A stretch of DNA of 64,000 nt from Myxococcota bacterium (GCA_965223705.1 OZ245015.1:2528001-2592000); one strand, 5' to 3'; counted from the stretch's first letter, positions 1 through 11,314 are shown. Numbers and translations: made by a program. Notes: generated from the letters alone by a model not told the origin.

Positions 1-1
1 G

Positions 2-589
2 AATGCGTGGCACGTCCAGGCACTCGCGGGAAGCGCCGACCACAATCTCAGCTTCGACAACGTCGAGTACGCCCAGGTCCCGCGGAACCTCGCGATGAGC
101 TTCATCGCGCCCGACGACGACGTCACGGCCGAGCTCATCCTGTACACACTGAACGGGCGCCTGCTCGAGGCGCCTCCCGTGCTCCTCGGTGCGCTCGCGT
201 ACGACGACGATGAGAACGCCTTATCCAACACCCACGAATACACGTGCTTTACGGTCGTATCGCTCGAAACCATCTTCGGGCTCGGGATCCGGCGGGAAAA
301 CGGGCCCGGCGGCTTCCCTTACTTCGTCGGGCACGTCTCCTTGTTTGCCCTCGTTCACGCGGGTGGCTACACGGGCGTCGGCAACCCGCCCGGCGCGATT
401 TCCCACTCGTTCGGCTGGCTGCTGCAGACGATCGCGAACGGTGGCGACCTGAACGACAACGCGCCGTTGGGGCCGCCCGAACCGAACTTCGGAAACTCGA
501 TGCCCGGGGCCGCTGCGTGGGCTCGCCCCGCGCTGCGAACGGTCGAGACCGTGCCGGCGCAGTTTGACGCGGATCCCCGCGGTCCCTAG
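2..589 (+). CDS. Secreted-protein paralog, copy 1 (5'-truncated by window edge)
   Basis: Frame is open from position 2 (NAWHVQALAGSADHNLSFDNVEYAQVPRNLAMSFIAPDDD...), colinear with the C-terminal half of ORF 726..1802. Confidence 0.9.
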   Translation, partial: NAWHVQALAGSADHNLSFDNVEYAQVPRNLAMSFIAPDDDVTAELILYTLNGRLLEAPPVLLGALAYDDDENALSNTHEYTCFTVVSLETIFGLGIRRENGPGGFPYFVGHVSLFALVHAGGYTGVGNPPGAISHSFGWLLQTIANGGDLNDNAPLGPPEPNFGNSMPGAAAWARPALRTVETVPAQFDADPRGP

Positions 590-725: not shown

Positions 726-1802
726 ATGAAGCATCGGCTATTCGTCGGTTGTCTATTCGCTCTACTGGTAATGGGGTGGAGCGACGCATCATTCAGCGCG
801 GTCACGGCGAGCGATCACAGCGCTGTGGGAGCCGTGGTCACGAACCCGTGGCTCGTCGATGGCGACCGACTCACGCTCGCGACGCTGACGAACGGCAGTA
901 GTTTCTGGATCACGGTTCACGTGACCGTGTTCGATGCCGCTTGGCAGCCGATCAACTTCGATTGCAAGCTGTCCCCGATGGAAACGACCTACTTCGTGTT
1001 CGAAGCGCACAGTGTCGGATCGAAGCTCACTTCGGAATGTAGCGACCCGATTTCCGGCAACTTGAACATCGTGCAGACCCGCTTCGTCCCGGGAGAGCGC
1101 GACGGGTTTGTCGTGTTCCACCACACCTTGGTCCCCGGCGCCACGACGCCGCAGAACGTCCTCATCGGCGATTTCGTCGTGATCGATTTCGACCAGGGAT
1201 ACGCGTTCTCGGCGAACGCCTGGCATGTGCAGGCGCTGGCGGGAAGCACCGACCAGAATCTCATCTTCGACGGGACCGAGTTTGCGCAACTACCAAAGGT
1301 CCTGGCCGGAAGCTTCATCGCGCCCGACGACGACATCACCGCAGATCTCATCCTCTATACGCTGAACGGAGCGTTGGGCTGGCCCGCGGAAGTGAAGTTG
1401 GGCGGCATCGTCTACGACGACGATGAGCAGGCGCTCTCGAACGTTCACGAATACGACTGCTTCACCGTGGTCTCGCTGATCGATGTGTTCGGCCTGAGCG
1501 TCGACCGGCGGAACGGTCCCGGCGGCTTTCCCTACTTCGTGGGGCACGTCAGCCTCTTCGCTCTCTTCGCCCCGGGCGGCTACGCCGGTGCGACCGCGCC
1601 TCCTGGCGCCGTTGCGAGCTCGCTCGGTTGGATCGTTCAGACCATGGCCGACATCGGCGACCTGAACGACAACCAGCCCCTCGGTCATCAGCCGAACTTC
1701 GGCAACGTTTCCTCCGGCCAGTCCGCCTGGGCCCGGCAGTTATTGACGACCCAGGATTCCATCCCGAACCGCCTCGACGCCGATCCTCGAGGCGGCGCCT
1801 AG
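726..1802 (+). CDS. Secreted-protein paralog, copy 2 (358 aa, unknown function)
   Basis: Signal-peptide-like N-terminus (MKHRLFVGCLFALLVMGWSDASFSA); shares LSPMETTYFVFE, IDFDQGYAFSAN, FIAPDDD, GPGGFPYFVGHVSLFAL, GDLNDN with neighbours. Confidence 0.9.
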   Translation: MKHRLFVGCLFALLVMGWSDASFSAVTASDHSAVGAVVTNPWLVDGDRLTLATLTNGSSFWITVHVTVFDAAWQPINFDCKLSPMETTYFVFEAHSVGSKLTSECSDPISGNLNIVQTRFVPGERDGFVVFHHTLVPGATTPQNVLIGDFVVIDFDQGYAFSANAWHVQALAGSTDQNLIFDGTEFAQLPKVLAGSFIAPDDDITADLILYTLNGALGWPAEVKLGGIVYDDDEQALSNVHEYDCFTVVSLIDVFGLSVDRRNGPGGFPYFVGHVSLFALFAPGGYAGATAPPGAVASSLGWIVQTMADIGDLNDNQPLGHQPNFGNVSSGQSAWARQLLTTQDSIPNRLDADPRGGA

Positions 1803-1803
1803 A

Positions 1804-1894
1804 CACCACAAGCTCTTCGCGTCTCAAGACGAACGAGCTGATTCCGAACTACCACTCCCTCGACGTGACGACGGACGAGATTTGCGTGTTCTGA
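1804..1894 (+). pseudogene. Relic, frameshifted C-terminal fragment of another array paralog
   Basis: KLFASQD in one frame then ELIPNYHSLDVTTDEICVF* in the next; aligns to KLLKSQDQTPVCNALDVTQDPPVTC of copy 5. Confidence 0.65.
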
Positions 1895-1926
1895 GTTCTC
1901 GGCAGACACTCGCGTGTGTCGATCCC

Positions 1927-1964
1927 GGCGCCTGGAAGGTTCTCCTTCCGGGCGCCTTCTTGTT
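1927..1964 (+). terminator. Intrinsic terminator (array type)
   Basis: GGCGCCTGGAAGG-ttct-CCTTCCGGGCGCC followed by TTCTTGTT. Confidence 0.8.
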
Positions 1965-2016
1965 GCGCATGGCTTCACCGCAATTGCGCATCCCTTGCGC
2001 ACCGACCGTTTTTTCT

Positions 2017-2042
2017 GACACCAAGTGACGTTTTTCGCCACT
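2017..2042 (+). promoter_or_regulatory. Putative ECF-sigma-type promoter GACAC-N17-CACT (identical copy at 3352-3377)
   Basis: Conserved bipartite motif in the array leaders. Confidence 0.45.
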
Positions 2043-2120
2043 ACCTCCTAGACGCCTGTCGCCGCGGTGGTGACCGGCTTGAACGGGTGATCCCGTTCGC
2101 GCGTATCAAGGAGTTTTCTC

Positions 2121-3206
2121 ATGCTGAAGCTGAAGCACATCTTGGTCGCCGCCGTTGCGGCGATCTTCCTGTCGAGCCCGGGTCTCGCCGCGCTCCCCCT
2201 GATGGACCACGCGGCCACCGGTAGCCTCGTGTCCACGCCGTGGCTCGCCACGGGCAAGCGCGTCACCGTCACGACGCTGACCAACGCCCTCGCGGACCCG
2301 ATCACGGTCCACTTCACGGCGCTCAACAACAAGTGGCAGGGAATCGACTTCGATTGCCCCCTCTCCCCCATGGAGACCACCTACTTCGTGTTCGAGTCCA
2401 ACGCTGCGGGTGGCGCCAAGGTCACGTTCGAGTGCAGTGACATCACCCAGAGCAACCTGAACATCGTCCGCACCCTCTTCATCCCGGGTGCTGCCGATGA
2501 GCGCGAAGGCTTCATCGTCTTCCACACGACGGCCGGCGTGGGCTTCCCCACTCCGAACCCGGCGAGCGTCCAGTCCCTCATCGCTGACTTCACCGTCATC
2601 GACTTCGACCAGGGCTATGCGTTCTCCGCCAACGGCTGGCACTTCCAGGTGCAGGGCACGAACCAGAACAACTCGCTCACCGTCCCGGCGACCCTCGCGT
2701 CGAGCTTCATCGCTCCCGACGACGACATCACGGCCGAGCTCCTCCTCTACACCCTCCACGGTGCGATTGGTTGGAACTCCCCGGTCAAGTTCGGTGGTCT
2801 CGCCTACGATGATGACGAGCAGCCCCTCTCGAACACCCACGAGTACGACTGCTTCACGGTCGTGTCCCTCGAGGACATCTTCGGCCTGAGCATCGATCGT
2901 CGGAACGGTCCGGGCGGCTTCCCGTACTTCGTCGGCCACGTGAGCCTCTTCGCGTTGGTTCACCCCTTGGCCGCGATCCCGGGCAACTCCTTCGCTCCGT
3001 ACCAGTCGGCTTCGGTGGGCTACATGATCCAGACCATCGCGAGCGGTGGCGACCTGAACGACAACGTTCAGCTCGGCCCGATCCAGCCGAACTTCGGTGA
3101 GACGATGCCGGCCAACGCGGCTTGGGCGCGCAAGCTCCTCAAGACGATCCAGCCGGCTCAGCCCCAGTGCAACGCGCTCGACGTGACGATCGCTGGTGGC
3201 TGCTAG
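2121..3206 (+). CDS. Secreted-protein paralog, copy 3 (361 aa)
   Basis: AAGGAG RBS; signal peptide MLKLKHILVAAVAAIFLSSPGLA; strong codon bias; family motifs. Confidence 0.95.
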   Translation: MLKLKHILVAAVAAIFLSSPGLAALPLMDHAATGSLVSTPWLATGKRVTVTTLTNALADPITVHFTALNNKWQGIDFDCPLSPMETTYFVFESNAAGGAKVTFECSDITQSNLNIVRTLFIPGAADEREGFIVFHTTAGVGFPTPNPASVQSLIADFTVIDFDQGYAFSANGWHFQVQGTNQNNSLTVPATLASSFIAPDDDITAELLLYTLHGAIGWNSPVKFGGLAYDDDEQPLSNTHEYDCFTVVSLEDIFGLSIDRRNGPGGFPYFVGHVSLFALVHPLAAIPGNSFAPYQSASVGYMIQTIASGGDLNDNVQLGPIQPNFGETMPANAAWARKLLKTIQPAQPQCNALDVTIAGGC

Positions 3207-3247
3207 CCTCCTGTCTTAAGCGGGCATCGGCCTGCGACATGACACCC

Positions 3248-3285
3248 GGCGCCCGGAAGGTTTTCCTTCCGGGCGCCTTCTTTTT
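3248..3285 (+). terminator. Intrinsic terminator (array type)
   Basis: GGCGCCCGGAAGG-tttt-CCTTCCGGGCGCC plus T-tract. Confidence 0.88.
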
Positions 3286-3455
3286 ACGCCGGGTCTACTA
3301 CGACCGTTTGCACCACAGTTGCGCATCCCTTGCGCACCGACCGTTTTTTCTGACACCAAGTGACGTTTTTCGCCACTACCTCCTAGACGCCTGTCGCCGC
3401 GGTGGTGACCGGCTTGAACGGGTGATCCCGTTCGCGCGTATCAAGGAGTTTTCTC

Positions 3456-4544
3456 ATGCTGAAGCTGAAGCACATCTTGGTCGCCGCCGTTGCGGCGATC
3501 TTCCTGTCGAGCCCGGGTCTCGCCGCGCTCCCCCTGATGGACCACGCGGCCACCGGTAGCCTCGTGTCCACGCCGTGGCTCGCCACGGGCAAGCGCGTCA
3601 CCGTCACGACGCTGACCAACGCCCTCGCGGACCCGATCACGGTCCACTTCACGGCGCTCAACAACAAGTGGCAGGGAATCGACTTCGATTGCCCCCTCTC
3701 CCCCATGGAGACCACCTACTTCGTGTTCGAGTCCAACGCTGCGGGTGGCGCCAAGGTCACGTTCGAGTGCAGTGACATCACCCAGAGCAACCTGAACATC
3801 GTCCGCACCCTCTTCATCCCGGGTGCTGCCGATGAGCGCGAAGGCTTCATCGTCTTCCACACGACGGCCGGCGTGGGCTTCCCCACTCCGAACCCGGCGA
3901 GCGTCCAGTCCCTCATCGCTGACTTCACCGTCATCGACTTCGACCAGGGCTATGCGTTCTCCGCCAACGGCTGGCACTTCCAGGTGCAGGGAACGAACCA
4001 GAACAACTTCCTCCCGGTCCCGGCGACCCTCGCGTCGAGCTTCATCGCTCCCGACGACGACATCACGGCCGAGCTCCTCCTCTACACGCTCAATGGGCGC
4101 ATTGGTTGGAACTCCCCGGTCAAGTTCGGTGGTCTCGCCTACGATGATGACGAGCAGCCCCTCTCGAACACCCACGAGTACGACTGCTTCACGGTCGTGT
4201 CCCTCGAGGACATCTTCGGCCTGAGCATCGATCGTCGGAACGGTCCGGGCGGCTTCCCGTACTTCGTCGGCCACGTGAGCCTCTTCGCCCTGATTTCGCC
4301 CTTGGCCGTGGTCAACGGCGTTACGTTCGGCCCGTGGCAGTCGGCTTCGGTGGGCTACATGATCCAGACCATCGCGAGCGGTGGCGACCTGAACGACAAC
4401 GTTCAGCTCGGCCCGATCCAGCCGAACTTCGGTGAGACGATGCCGGCCAACGCGGCTTGGGCGCGCAAGCTCCTCAAGACGATCCAGCCGGCTCAGCCCC
4501 AGTGCAACGCGCTCGACGTGACGATCGTTGGTAACTGCAACTAG
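3456..4544 (+). CDS. Secreted-protein paralog, copy 4 (362 aa)
   Basis: Near-identical to copy 3 apart from four short patches. Confidence 0.95.
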   Translation: MLKLKHILVAAVAAIFLSSPGLAALPLMDHAATGSLVSTPWLATGKRVTVTTLTNALADPITVHFTALNNKWQGIDFDCPLSPMETTYFVFESNAAGGAKVTFECSDITQSNLNIVRTLFIPGAADEREGFIVFHTTAGVGFPTPNPASVQSLIADFTVIDFDQGYAFSANGWHFQVQGTNQNNFLPVPATLASSFIAPDDDITAELLLYTLNGRIGWNSPVKFGGLAYDDDEQPLSNTHEYDCFTVVSLEDIFGLSIDRRNGPGGFPYFVGHVSLFALISPLAVVNGVTFGPWQSASVGYMIQTIASGGDLNDNVQLGPIQPNFGETMPANAAWARKLLKTIQPAQPQCNALDVTIVGNCN

Positions 4545-4585
4545 CCCCATGTCCTGCGCAGGCACCGGCCTGTGATGCGACACCC

Positions 4586-4625
4586 GGCGCCCGGAAGGTT
4601 TTCCTTCCGGGCGCCTTCTTTTTTT
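4586..4625 (+). terminator. Intrinsic terminator (array type)
   Basis: Same 13-bp stem as 3248-3277 plus long T-tract. Confidence 0.88.
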
Positions 4626-4651
4626 GTCACTTCCAGGCGATTTCAGCCACT
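4626..4651 (+). promoter_or_regulatory. Putative ECF-sigma-type promoter GTCAC-N17-CACT
   Basis: Conserved bipartite motif directly after the terminator, 40 nt before the ATG. Confidence 0.5.
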
Positions 4652-4691
4652 TCCTTGATGGACCTGCCCGACGAGCAGGAGGAGTGTTCCC

Positions 4692-5780
4692 ATGCTGAAG
4701 TTGAAATCGTTCTTGCTGGTTGCTGTGGCTTCCTTGCTCATCGCGAGCCCCGGCCTTGCCGCGCTCAACCTGATGGACCACGCGGCCACCGGCAGCATCG
4801 TCTCGACGCCGTGGTTGGCCGAAGGTCATCGAACCACCGTCACGACCCTGACGAATGCCCTTGCGCAGACCGTCACCGTCCACGTGACCGCGCTCGACAG
4901 CCAGTGGCAGCCCCTCGACTTCGACTGCCAGCTCTCCCCCATGGAGACCACCTACTTCGTGTTCGAGACCAACGGCACGAACGGCGCCAAGATCACGTCC
5001 GAGTGCAGCGACGTCTCGCAGAGCAATCTCAACATCGTGCAGACCCGCTTCATTCCGGGGCAGCAGAATGGCTTTGTCGTGTTCCACACGACGGCCGGCG
5101 CGGGCGTTCCGCCGAATCCCACGGACAACGGCGTGTCGCTCATCGCGGACTTCACGGTCATCGACTTCGACCAGGGCTATGCCTTCTCCGCCAACGGCTG
5201 GCATTTCCAGACCCAGGGTGCGACCCAAAACAACACGCTCCAGATCCCGCAGGTCCTCGCGTCGAGCTTCATCGCCCCGGATGACGACATCACCGCGGAG
5301 CTCCTCCTCTACACGCTTCATGGGCGTGCGGGATGGAACTCCCCGGTCAAGCTCGGCGGGCTCGCTTACGACGACGACGAGCAGCCCCTCTCGAACGTCC
5401 ATGAGTACGACTGCTTCACGATCGTTGCGCTCGAAGACATCTTCGGCCTGAGCATCGATCGCCGAAACGGCCCGGGCGGCTTCCCGTACTTCGTCGGCCA
5501 CGTGAGCCTCTTCGCGCTCATCCATCCTCTGGCCTACGACCCGACCACCGGTTCGTTCGGTCCGTTCTTGTCCGCTTCGGTGGGATACATCGTCCAGACC
5601 ATCGCGAGCGGCGGCGACCTGAACGACAACGTCCGGCTCGGCCCGATCCAGCCGAACTTCGGCGACAGCATGCCCGCCATGGGTGCTTGGGCCCGAAAGC
5701 TCCTGAAGTCGCAGGACCAGACCCCGGTCTGCAACGCGCTCGACGTCACCCAGGATCCGCCCGTTACTTGCGGCACCTGA
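4692..5780 (+). CDS. Secreted-protein paralog, copy 5 (362 aa)
   Basis: AGGAGG RBS; signal peptide MLKLKSFLLVAVASLLIASPGLA; family motifs. Confidence 0.95.
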   Translation: MLKLKSFLLVAVASLLIASPGLAALNLMDHAATGSIVSTPWLAEGHRTTVTTLTNALAQTVTVHVTALDSQWQPLDFDCQLSPMETTYFVFETNGTNGAKITSECSDVSQSNLNIVQTRFIPGQQNGFVVFHTTAGAGVPPNPTDNGVSLIADFTVIDFDQGYAFSANGWHFQTQGATQNNTLQIPQVLASSFIAPDDDITAELLLYTLHGRAGWNSPVKLGGLAYDDDEQPLSNVHEYDCFTIVALEDIFGLSIDRRNGPGGFPYFVGHVSLFALIHPLAYDPTTGSFGPFLSASVGYIVQTIASGGDLNDNVRLGPIQPNFGDSMPAMGAWARKLLKSQDQTPVCNALDVTQDPPVTCGT

Positions 5781-5809
5781 TCGGCGGAATCCACGGATTG
5801 TTTCCGTCG

Positions 5810-5843
5810 ACGCCCGGAGGGCTTCAGGCCTTCCGGGCGTTTT
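5810..5843 (+). terminator. Intrinsic terminator closing the array; overlaps 3' end of convergent SSS gene
   Basis: ACGCCCGGAGGGC-ttcag-GCCTTCCGGGCGT followed by Ts. Confidence 0.75.
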
Positions 5844-7278
5844 GTCTTCCGCGGTCGACGTAGGTCACGACGAGAGCGACGAGGAGGTTCGCAAAGGCGC
5901 CGATCACACCGATGTGGAAGCCCTCGATGCGCTTGAAGCCCCCGAGCGCGGCCCCTACGGCGACCGTTGTCCCGACGACCAGCCCGCAAAGTGCGGCCCG
6001 GGCCGAGAAGCGCTTCCAATGAATGGCTACGAGGAATGCTGGCGCGCACTGGATCAGGATCTCCATCTTGAGCTCGATGAGCCGCCAGAGACTGAGCTTC
6101 GGCATCAGCGCAAAGCCCAGCGCGATGAGCATCACCAGCGCTGCGGCGCGCTTTCCGGTGCGGGTCGTCGCCGGATCGTGGCGGTCGCGACCGAGCAGGT
6201 CGCAGGCAATCACCGAGCCCAGTGAAAGAAGGACCGAGTCGGCCGTCGACATGATCGCCGCCAGAGCCCCGATGAAGACCGCGACGGCAAAGACGGCGTT
6301 GATGGAGCTCGTCGCCGCCCACTCGCTGAGAAGCCGCGGCATGACCGTATCGGCTTCGACCGTGCCCAGGCCCGCGAACCGAGGAATCGCCGCAATCCCG
6401 ATCAACATGACCACGAAGGTGGTGGTGAGCGGCATGAAGCCCATGAGCGCGAGCGCGCGCTTCAGCTCGCCGCCGCTTCGCGCGGCGAAAATGCGCTGAA
6501 TCGCCTGGGGGTACATCAGTCCGCCGAAGCCGAGAAGCACCACGGTGGAGATCCAGTTCCAGCGCTCGGGCCAATCCGGCACGGCGACGGCCTCGGGGCG
6601 CACTCGGGCGACCTCGCGGGCGAGTCCCGCGAGTCCCGCGCCGTCGATGGCAACCCAGTGCAGGAGGAGGCCCAAGCCCACCAGCATGAGAAGCCCCTGG
6701 GCAGTGTCCGTCCAGGCGACGGCGCGCATGCCGCCCAAGGTCTCGTACACGAGGATGAACGCGGCCAACCCGACGACCGCGACCCAGTAGGGCACGAGCC
6801 CCCCCGTCACTTCCCCGGTGACGTGCCCCATGGCGACGAGCTGCGCGAGAAGAAAGTTGCCCAGCGCGAGGATCATCAAGGCGGCAACCGCCACTTCGAG
6901 AGCGCGACCGAGCGGCTCCCCCGCGAACCGATGGCGCAAGAAATCCCCGGGTGTCACGAACCCTTCGCGCGTCGCGAGCGGCCGGAGCTTCGGAACGAGG
7001 ATCTGGAACGTCACCATGATCGACATCATCATGCCGGTCGAGATGATCCAGGCGTAGCCGCGCCGGTAGCCCTCGCCGGGATAACCGAGGAGTGAGTTGC
7101 CGCTGTACGTCGTGGCGTAGAGGGTCATCAGCAACACGAAGAAACCGAGGCCCCGGGACGCCAAGAAATGGTCGTCCGGCGAATGATCGCGACGCGCCCG
7201 GCGCGCGACTTCGGCGAGGCCGATGAGCGCGACGAGGTACACCGCAAGACACAGCGCGCCGAGGTCGCCGAAGCTCAT
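5824..7278 (-). CDS. Sodium:solute symporter (SSS, PanF/PutP-like)
   Basis: Many TM helices; ATTYSGNSLLGYPG, GGMRAVAWTD, AAIMSTADS motifs. Confidence 0.92.
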   Translation of the reverse strand: MSFGDLGALCLAVYLVALIGLAEVARRARRDHSPDDHFLASRGLGFFVLLMTLYATTYSGNSLLGYPGEGYRRGYAWIISTGMMMSIMVTFQILVPKLRPLATREGFVTPGDFLRHRFAGEPLGRALEVAVAALMILALGNFLLAQLVAMGHVTGEVTGGLVPYWVAVVGLAAFILVYETLGGMRAVAWTDTAQGLLMLVGLGLLLHWVAIDGAGLAGLAREVARVRPEAVAVPDWPERWNWISTVVLLGFGGLMYPQAIQRIFAARSGGELKRALALMGFMPLTTTFVVMLIGIAAIPRFAGLGTVEADTVMPRLLSEWAATSSINAVFAVAVFIGALAAIMSTADSVLLSLGSVIACDLLGRDRHDPATTRTGKRAAALVMLIALGFALMPKLSLWRLIELKMEILIQCAPAFLVAIHWKRFSARAALCGLVVGTTVAVGAALGGFKRIEGFHIGVIGAFANLLVALVVTYVDRGRQNARKA

Positions 7279-7347
7279 TCAGAGCGATCCGTCGCGAGCG
7301 CAGTGCTCATTCGGAGCGATCCGTCGCGAGCGCAGTGCTCATTCAGA
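7274..7347. repeat. 32-bp tandem repeat, about 2.3 copies
   Basis: CTCATTC(A/G)GAGCGATCCGTCGCGAGCGCAGTG twice, then CTCATTCAGA. Confidence 0.95.
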
Positions 7348-10735: not shown

Positions 10736-11254
10736 GTGCTCCCCCGCAACTTGCGCGAGGCCGCATTTTTCCTGTTCGGGCTCTGGGCCGCGTTCGCACT
10801 CCTCGTCCCCTTGGTCGCTCCGAGTCACGCGAACGCCGCGGAGCCCTACCTCGAGGAGCTCGAGCGCGAGATCTTCACCGCGGTGAATCGGTTTCGCGAC
10901 GAGCGCAAGCTCATTCCCCTCGCACGCCGACCGGAGCTCGACGCGGTCGCACGGGCTCACTCGACCGACATGATCGCGCGCGGTTTCTTCGCACACGAAA
11001 ACCCCGAGGGCCACATCTGGGTCGACCGTCTGCGCATCGCGGGCGTCGACGGCTTCAGCCTCGCGGGAGAGAACGTCGGGCTGACGAGCCGCTCCGATCC
11101 CGTCCGGGAAATCGTCGGCGGCTGGGAGCGCTCGCCAGTGCACCTCGAGAATCTGAAAGCGCGCCCGTTCAACGCCACCGGCGTCGGCATCGCGCGGGCG
11201 CCCGACGGCACCCTCTACGTGACGCAGCTCTACCTGACGTTTCCGAAGGACTGA
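10736..11254 (+). CDS. CAP/SCP domain secreted protein
   Basis: VNRFR, ARAHSTDM..GFFAH, AGENVG, WERSPVHLENL, TGVGI. Confidence 0.9.
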   Translation: MLPRNLREAAFFLFGLWAAFALLVPLVAPSHANAAEPYLEELEREIFTAVNRFRDERKLIPLARRPELDAVARAHSTDMIARGFFAHENPEGHIWVDRLRIAGVDGFSLAGENVGLTSRSDPVREIVGGWERSPVHLENLKARPFNATGVGIARAPDGTLYVTQLYLTFPKD

Positions 11255-11314
11255 CGCGGACTAGAAGCGCTCGGTGATGCGGCTGACGCGGACTAGAAGC
11301 GCGCGGTGATGCGG
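11251..11314. repeat. 32-bp tandem duplication at a convergent gene junction
   Basis: CTGACGCGGACTAGAAGCGC(T/G)CGGTGATGCGG twice, one mismatch. Confidence 0.95.

Follow-up and report, generated by a model that had tools for sequence, protein, structure and literature searches.

Two near-identical tandem genes for a likely surface protein in a Myxococcota bacterium differ only in short patches

Duplicated genes under concerted evolution can retain peaks of divergence, of which the red and green opsins are an example (Fawcett and Innan, PMC3924837), and long-lasting concerted evolution is on record in prokaryotes (PMC6053082). Here we describe c3 and c4, two near-identical neighbours in a tandem array of six genes (c0-c5) for an unnamed protein family, which lie in a 64,000-nucleotide (nt) stretch of DNA from a Myxococcota bacterium (hereafter the window; GCA_965223705.1 OZ245015.1:2528001-2592000, or G000:C1:2528001-2592000 in our coordinates). 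In the opsins, as in c3/c4, neighbouring duplicates are near-identical save in short regions and paralogs group by species outside the peaks, whereas the alleles at the opsin peaks are common to orthologues and the c3/c4 patches contain no orthologue-specific column (PMC3924837). The flaA and flaB genes of Campylobacter are tandem flagellin genes with intragenomic recombination (PMC5126078; also Meinersmann and Hiett, 2000, as cited there); they resemble what we propose for c3/c4 in being a tandem pair for an abundant surface polymer, whose remaining differences have been suggested to diversify the surface in defence against immunity or phage. Unlike c3/c4, which share a 137-nt leader, they have different promoters and belong to another protein family, and c3/c4 have no known host-immune context. 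The lpl genes of Staphylococcus aureus form a tandem paralog cluster of surface proteins which, like the array described here, shows homologous recombination in conserved parts and copy-number change; in lpl genes a single conserved block at the centre is flanked by large variable ends, and the products are lipoproteins, whereas c3 and c4 are 97% identical, differ in patches of 13-49 nt and lack a lipobox cysteine (PMC2568036). The mechanism that we favour, in which tandem surface-protein genes evolve in concert but keep residual divergent patches, is already known; the unnamed family, a relic of a further copy and the recurrence of the pattern in other lineages are what make this case of interest.

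Identical tracts and patches in c3 and c4

In a global alignment c3 and c4 shared 1,122 identical bases in four tracts of 673, 71, 188 and 190 nt (Table 1). The first of these, 1984-2656 against 3319-3991, contained no difference, which bears out the identity of about 670 bp, including the non-coding leader, reported by a first-pass annotation made from the sequence alone; the alignment also agreed with its clusters of differences at about 2657-2681, 2753-2766 and 2955-3002 and at the C-terminus, separated by identical DNA, and the patch peptides that it quoted were correct. Rather than being spread evenly, the differences were confined to the patches: over the first 361 codons 35 bases differed, in 20 codons, all of which fell inside the four patches, and 15 of the 20 altered the residue while 11 carried a change of two or three bases. 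A 673-nt identical run arose in none of 100,000 random placements of 37 differences in 1,223 nt. The tufA and tufB genes of the same genome, a textbook homogenised gene pair, served as control and showed 38 differences in 1,188 nt, scattered along the genes, with two amino-acid changes.

The proportions of differing synonymous (pS) and non-synonymous (pN) sites were 0.42 and 0.12 in patch 1, 0.92 and 0.28 in patch 2, 0.45 and 0.37 in patch 3, and 0.049 and 0.027 over the whole gene; patch 4, on 4 codons only, gave pS 0 and pN 0.33. The earlier description of the patches as mostly non-synonymous thus holds by codon count but not per site, where pS was at least as high as pN in patches 1-3 and in the whole gene. 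Its further statement that the same positions vary across all copies can be kept in part, since 11 of the 15 changed residues lie at sites variable among c1, c2 and c5, but 181 sites are equally variable. The overlap of the patches with variable sites gave a circular-shift p of 0.10 against c1, c2 and c5 and of 0.04 against ten closer homologues.

Table 1. Features of the array and other loci named in the text. Plain positions are those of the window; others carry a contig or locus prefix.
Feature	Position	Strand	Description
c0	G000:C1:2526259-2527380 (= L001:12259-13380)		sixth tandem paralog; wholly upstream of window
c1	1..589	+	3' part of array's second gene; start 479 nt ahead of window
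c2	726..1802	+	divergent paralog, 358 residues; ~55% identity to c3
Relic	1823..1894	+	last 23 codons and stop of putative lost c3/c4-type gene, between c2 and c3
Hairpin of relic	1927..1956	+	terminator-like; relic 3' end; 91% like c3 terminator region
c3	2121..3206	+	361 residues; signal peptide and two predicted TM1070/ASRT-like beta-sandwich domains
Identical tract 1	1984..2656; c4 twin 3319..3991	+	673 nt; 137-nt leader, signal peptide, entire N-terminal domain
Patch 1	2657..2681; twin 3992-4016	+	5 nt differ; codons 179-187; S185F, T187P; inter-domain linker
Identical tract	2682-2752	+	71 nt, between patches 1 and 2
Patch 2	2753..2765; twin 4088-4100	+	7 nt differ; codons 211-215; H213N, A215R; loop after C-domain strand 2
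Identical tract	2766-2953	+	188 nt, between patches 2 and 3
Patch 3	2954..3002; twin 4289-4337	+	20 nt differ; codons 278-294; 9 residue changes; predicted protruding beta-hairpin
Identical tract	3003-3192	+	190 nt, after patch 3
Patch 4 and 3' untranslated region	3193..3240; twin 4528-4578	+	low-confidence C-terminal tail; non-coding 3' region
Identical tract at terminator	3241..3285; twin 4579-4623	+	45 nt; contains c3 terminator-like hairpin 3248-3277
c4	3456..4544	+	362 residues; 96% identity to c3
c5	4692..5780	+	362 residues; ~77% identity to c3; own leader; own terminator 5809-5841
cX	L002:6719-7810		orphan paralog; low codon adaptation; among unrelated metabolic genes
EF-Tu genes	G000:C1:1434187-1435374 and 1450298-1451485		16 kb apart
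Reverse transcriptase	L034:1249-2448		genome's only Pfam RVT_1; adjoins transposase-like ORF
G025 trio	L037:1940-7050 (G025:C13)		three tandem distant members; first and third near-identical, shared leader, clustered differences

Probable concerted evolution of the c3-type genes

A protein search yielded 20 homologues, six of which, together with a seventh from a cluster look-up, were assigned to a related contig of 25,939 nt that is known as proteins only. They comprise counterparts of c0, c1, c2 and c5 (90-93% identical) and three c3-type proteins (84-88%). In a tree of 17 proteins, for which the frameshifted tails of three proteins were trimmed, c1, c2 and c5 paired with their orthologues from the related contig (support 100/100, 100/98 and 87/81) and c0 grouped with its own orthologue and the orphan paralog cX (99/99), whereas c3 and c4 formed a clade (100/99) apart from the three c3-type proteins of the related contig (89/90). 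Since c3-type copies group by genome and the other paralogs by orthologue, these results point to concerted evolution that would be mostly limited to the c3-type subfamily and that most likely proceeds by gene conversion. In the quartet of c3, c4 and the homologues P0002 and P0004, 15 columns were genome-specific and none orthologue-specific. In addition, c3 and c4 showed no silent difference in any framework window, whereas the other paralogs differed silently in 8-65% of same-residue codons, depending on the window; c0 and c5 differed silently from c3 in all 12 windows, and c4 only in the three windows with patches 1-3. Codon bias as a cause of the identity was rejected, because c0 and c5 also have a high codon adaptation index (CAI; ranks 18 and 36) yet differ silently from c3. 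No homogenisation of c5 with c3/c4 was seen in this genome.

The patches themselves look old, because their pS (0.42-0.92, on few sites) is similar to that of c3 against c5 or c0 (0.40-0.48), because many of their codon changes involve several bases, and because 11 of the 37 bases of the 3' untranslated region (UTR) differ. One recent duplication could not produce the alternation of identical tracts and such old islands, and conversion of the framework is the simplest cause; a later re-duplication from one surviving copy is conceivable, though it would still need conversion or import. The tree, the genome-specific columns, the silent identity of the framework and the old-looking patches and UTR together uphold the first-pass proposal that the framework is being homogenised.

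A multi-copy c3-type state is also indicated by three copies in the related contig and by a relic in this genome. The relic, which had gone unnoticed in the first reading of the sequence, lies between c2 and c3. Since 1823-1894 encodes a c3-type C-terminal end with a stop codon, followed by a c3-like terminator, the results indicate that the lineage formerly carried a further c3-type gene whose tail was different and of which only the 3' end is left. The tail of the relic matches P0002 of the related lineage at 15 of 22 residues, with a score of 78 against 26 for c3 and c4 that was equalled in none of 2,000 shuffles; its type is that of P0002 and P0095 and neither that of c3 nor that of c4.

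Taken over all the evidence, the explanation that we consider probable is that c3 and c4 are old tandem duplicates kept alike by conversion, the patches being stretches that conversion left. The data argue strongly that the c3-type genes would be an old multi-copy subfamily, gaining and losing copies by recombination, and, as strongly, that recent conversion, in tracts tens to hundreds of bases long, would have homogenised the c3/c4 framework; the patches would be the remainder that conversion has not erased. Some points weigh on the other side. A Sawyer-type permutation test over 124 silent columns and 10 pairs found no significant tract, at low power with only 5 silent differences between c3 and c4; the related contig looks error-prone, P0009 and P0010 being frameshifted; and its proteins were placed on one contig through the common figure of 25,939 nt. 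Scans for related loci with c3 alone returned none, and alignment scans returned distant members only, on short contigs (10 loci; 1 locus). One trio of distant members, in genome G025, shows the same mosaic in its first and third genes, which differ in N-domain loops, linker and tail and not in patches 2 or 3; the third is frameshifted.

The array as a whole is larger than the five copies counted in the first-pass annotation. A tblastn search of the genome found six family genes in tandem, one of them upstream of the window, and the orphan cX 0.8 Mb away, to which the relic must be added; a profile search of the genome returned the same seven members. Terminator-like hairpins were found ahead of c0, ahead of c3 and after each of c3, c4 and c5, and since such hairpins separate c3 from c4 the two are likely to be separate transcription units with identical 137-nt leaders; a search for a sigma-70-like promoter found none. 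Elsewhere in the window, two separate 32-nt head-to-tail duplications were seen at gene ends (7273-7336 and 11251-11314), their copies being 97% identical.

Alternative explanations of the patches

Whether the patches are kept different by selection for variety, for example by phages or grazers, at linker residue 185, the hairpin tip at about residues 286-290 and the tail, is a question on which we are evenly divided. The strongest competitor keeps the same conversion mechanism and dispenses with selection: after long divergence a recent conversion burst overwrote most of the two genes, and the patches are the parts that it missed, mostly in loosely constrained loops that stall strand exchange. 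We regard this neutral account as a serious possibility, though one falling somewhat short of an even chance. Recurrence speaks against it. Of 364 residues, six differ between P0002 and P0095, and five of these lie in patches 1, 3 and 4, one of them at column 185 itself; the probability of such recurrence was about 0.005-0.007 for three of the four clusters, and 0.03 without the tail, with the patches making up 11-13% of sites or of variability weight, so that it persists after weighting for variability in the family. Between P0002 and P0004, 12 of 43 differing positions fell in patches against 4.5 expected (circular p 0.018). A third lineage, seen in public sequencing run X5, carries two patch-3 versions, and neither c3 nor c4 keeps the family consensus HGR in patch 2, the two having changed at adjoining residues.

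A number of results weigh against selection or suit neutral left-overs. In patches 1-3 pN is not above pS, and the quartet of c3, c4, P0002 and P0004 contains no patch allele specific to orthologues between lineages; because no patch column is orthologue-specific, the patches would seem to turn over rather than mark stable functional types. Equally variable segments at about residues 57-63, 93-96, 123-129, 138-150, 315-330 and 342-348 are identical in c3 and c4, other variable loops thus having been overwritten, and the two proteins differ at only 7 of 90 highly variable sites. Patch 2 is uniform among P0002, P0095 and P0004, and one island of difference, in the 3' UTR, is non-coding. In a toy simulation with assumed rates and tract lengths, in which runs with a comparable number of differences counted as in range, a neutral recent burst (model B) reproduced the pattern in 160 of 1,789 in-range runs and, at its most favourable setting, in 33 of 79, selection at four sites in 9 of 85, and steady neutral conversion in 12 of 1,495; a first grid had given 3 matches in 6,360 runs, 385 of them in range. 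With these hit rates, a single c3/c4 pair cannot discriminate selection from a neutral burst. The first-pass proposal that loops are kept different therefore survives in part: the same patches differ in a near-identical pair of another lineage, but the per-site ratios, the identity of other variable loops and the sufficiency of a neutral model count against it. Its alternative, that loops are imported as cassettes, found no support within this genome, where a blastn-short search with all eight patch versions returned only the paralogs, none of them an exact donor.

A recent tandem duplication, or the acquisition of alleles from two strains, combined with import of the patches as short tracts by recombination with divergent DNA of other strains, is in our judgement unlikely. 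It would account for the absence of differences outside the patches, as in a young duplicate, and for the multi-base codon changes, as in imported tracts; several c4 patch codons are rare for so biased a gene, and the divergent piece at the end of c5 in run X2 (described below) may reflect local allele exchange. This account would however require four or five distinct imports, including one into a non-coding UTR, and no donor is present in the genome; c3-type multiplicity exists in two other lineages and in the relic here, and patch and framework codons are alike by a log-odds measure (0.050 vs 0.046).

Far less probable still is an assembly artefact in which two strain alleles of a single gene were set in tandem, even though a mixed sample is the probable source of the genome. 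The assembly of 4.56 Mb has two contigs, 65% G+C, no N and a contamination of 0.58%. Contigs of four public runs were mapped to window positions 1700-6000, with 32 of 124 pieces listed and contig depth taken as a rough measure; X1 and X4 come from the same sample (X4 possibly being the source of the assembly), X2 from a second sample of the same study and X5 from another study. Among the contigs listed none covers both c3 and c4. In exact-match contigs the depth over shared DNA was 15.4 and 17.0 against 8.2-11.0 for single-copy DNA in X1, 19.6 and 22.3 against 11.2-14.1 in X4, and 5.5 and 6.2 against 2.1-3.1 in X2. Shared DNA thus has about twice the single-copy depth in both samples, which disfavours mis-joined alleles, since those would give single depth. 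The ratios were near the expectation for popped bubbles (0.88-0.91 seen in X2 and X1, 0.91-0.92 expected) and one collapsed contig begins exactly at 3319. In X5, whose listed c3-type pieces are about 91-95% identical to the window, a contig of depth 7.0 connects the 3' end of a c3-type gene, by way of 109 letters that do not align, to a c3-type terminator and leader, a junction of the kind seen here; interior contigs have depth 12.8-14.9, and two loose ends represent the two patch-3 versions, to which a strain mix could contribute. Contig depth accordingly argues strongly for two c3-type copies per chromosome, and the mis-assembly raised as a concern in the first-pass annotation was not borne out. 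Run X2 also differed from the assembly by 18 letters in one 512-nt piece at 5487-5998 (L001:19487-19998), which spans the end of c5, its terminator and the end of a symporter gene, while four other listed pieces were exact.

Diversity-generating retroelements are marked by adenine-specific differences between template and variable repeat and by a reverse transcriptase nearby. Programmed diversification by such an element, by silent-cassette conversion or by promoter inversion could draw on the clustering of differences in a likely surface protein, the silent 3' relic at 1823-1894 and the single reverse transcriptase of the genome, but all three models were rejected as highly improbable, because adenine is not favoured (A at 6 and 8 of 35 differing sites), the reverse transcriptase lies 1.1 Mb away, no template repeat or donor was found for any patch, all array copies are intact and in direct orientation with their own leaders and terminators, and the tail of the relic occurs in neither c3 nor c4.

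Predicted fold, expression and surface role

Read from its sequence, c3 has a signal peptide and neither a lipobox nor a C-terminal anchor. Pfam and NCBIfam searches gave no family for c0, c2-c5 and cX (Cu-oxidase_3 appeared at 13 bits below cut-off), a profile of 71 sequences had no match among PDB sequences at E up to 10, and Foldseek searches of PDB and BFVD gave no convincing whole-protein match; the ESM Atlas returned unnamed clusters only, at 0.96-0.97, with Slr4 at 0.76-0.80 as a weak lead. A literature search, with most subscription papers outside its reach, found no paper on this family, which occurs in 5 of 193 genomes of the order (7, 6, 7, 8 and 1 matches) and has 79 representatives at 50% identity.

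An AlphaFold2 model built from 71 sequences (mean predicted local distance difference score, pLDDT, 89; predicted template-modelling score, pTM, 0.89) consists of two beta-sandwiches. Each predicted domain aligns best to TM1070 (1NC7), with Z 10.1 and a root-mean-square deviation (rmsd) of 2.4 over 105 aligned residues for one and Z 8.1 and rmsd 2.1 over 108 for the other; the next unrelated structures scored Z 6.6 and 6.3, and ASRT (2II7) 6.5 and 4.8. Both domains are thus predicted to be beta-sandwiches of the TM1070/ASRT type (ASRAH), a shared fold that in itself shows no function. For the ASRAH superfamily, sugar binding and secreted dyad and tetrad forms have been proposed, the binding being only predicted (PMC2739507). 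Like its members, c3 has the predicted fold and a secreted two-domain arrangement. Of the superfamily's conserved residues, an Asn ending strand 2 and a Trp starting strand 1, the first has a possible counterpart in T54-N55 after N-domain strand 2, a pair that hardly varies in the N-domain; Trp41 falls late in strand 1 and does not occur throughout the family, and position 213 of the C-domain is H, N or D. Unlike them, the c3 family lacks the H/C pocket signature, lipobox and amidase and has large inserted hairpins and multi-copy tandem arrays; the profile search gave no link to ASRT/TM1070, and none of the 71 members matched a Pfam ASRAH model. Judged from strand order only, the four patches may share one end of the C-domain.

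Against a reference of 11 translation and transcription genes, and among 3,231 crudely called open reading frames (ORFs), c3 ranked 1st and c4 3rd by CAI, and 4th and 5th by log-odds. With codon adaptation as a proxy, c3 and c4 are likely to be among the most highly expressed proteins of the cell. Equal co-expression is predicted from their identical leaders and separate terminators, in which case the cell would display a two-variant mixture on one framework. A secreted DUF1329/LolA-like protein encoded at L039:2081-3454 (G000:C1:906081-907454) has a codon adaptation just under that of EF-Tu.

On the strength of the signal peptide, the CAI ranks, a homologue with a PEP-CTERM tail and neighbours of cell-surface type, the product is likely to be a major secreted surface protein. 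Among homologues, PEP-CTERM tails were found in P0036 (above cut-off) and P0069 (just below). Distant members among P0036, P0069, P0078, P0087, P0022 and P0044 show a GxG-LEL-type hydrophobic tail with a basic end and no family hit, a cysteine-rich insert, or an extra N-terminal domain. Upstream of the array, L001:4968-12029 holds a cell-surface cluster with two PEP-CTERM proteins, a PMT+TPR protein (a possible O-mannosyltransferase), one FG-GAP protein, one choice-of-anchor D protein and a small secreted protein that matched no family.

An S-layer-like coat is conceivable, and we put it forward tentatively. Methylomirabilis mela_00855 is a small secreted S-layer protein of a diderm (PMC8671808), and S-layer proteins share with the c3 family a signal peptide, top codon adaptation, a beta-rich fold (predicted for c3), paralogs with a shared 5' leader, and neighbours of glycosylation and sorting-tag type. 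Unlike S-layer genes with several copies, such as the sapA homologues of Campylobacter fetus, the c3 family has no inversion system and no silent full-length copies; the searches showed no homology to a known S-layer family, Slr4 being the weak lead named above.

The locus is a clear example from nature, represented in three lineages and by a fossil copy, in which selection and left-over divergence could be tested against each other with population reads. It also draws attention to a family without a name whose members are likely major surface proteins, with a fold predicted to be ASRAH-like, and whose recurring patches are candidate phage- or ligand-contact residues. At its most speculative, and in our view doubtful, the array could encode an undescribed surface coat of tandem ASRAH-fold subunits, in which conversion would keep the top-expressed copies compatible for assembly while phage or predator pressure would keep the linker residue, hairpin tip and tail different. 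If true, each cell would wear a mixed, continually renewed coat, a form of antigenic variation arising outside any host immune system and recurring from lineage to lineage within one family.

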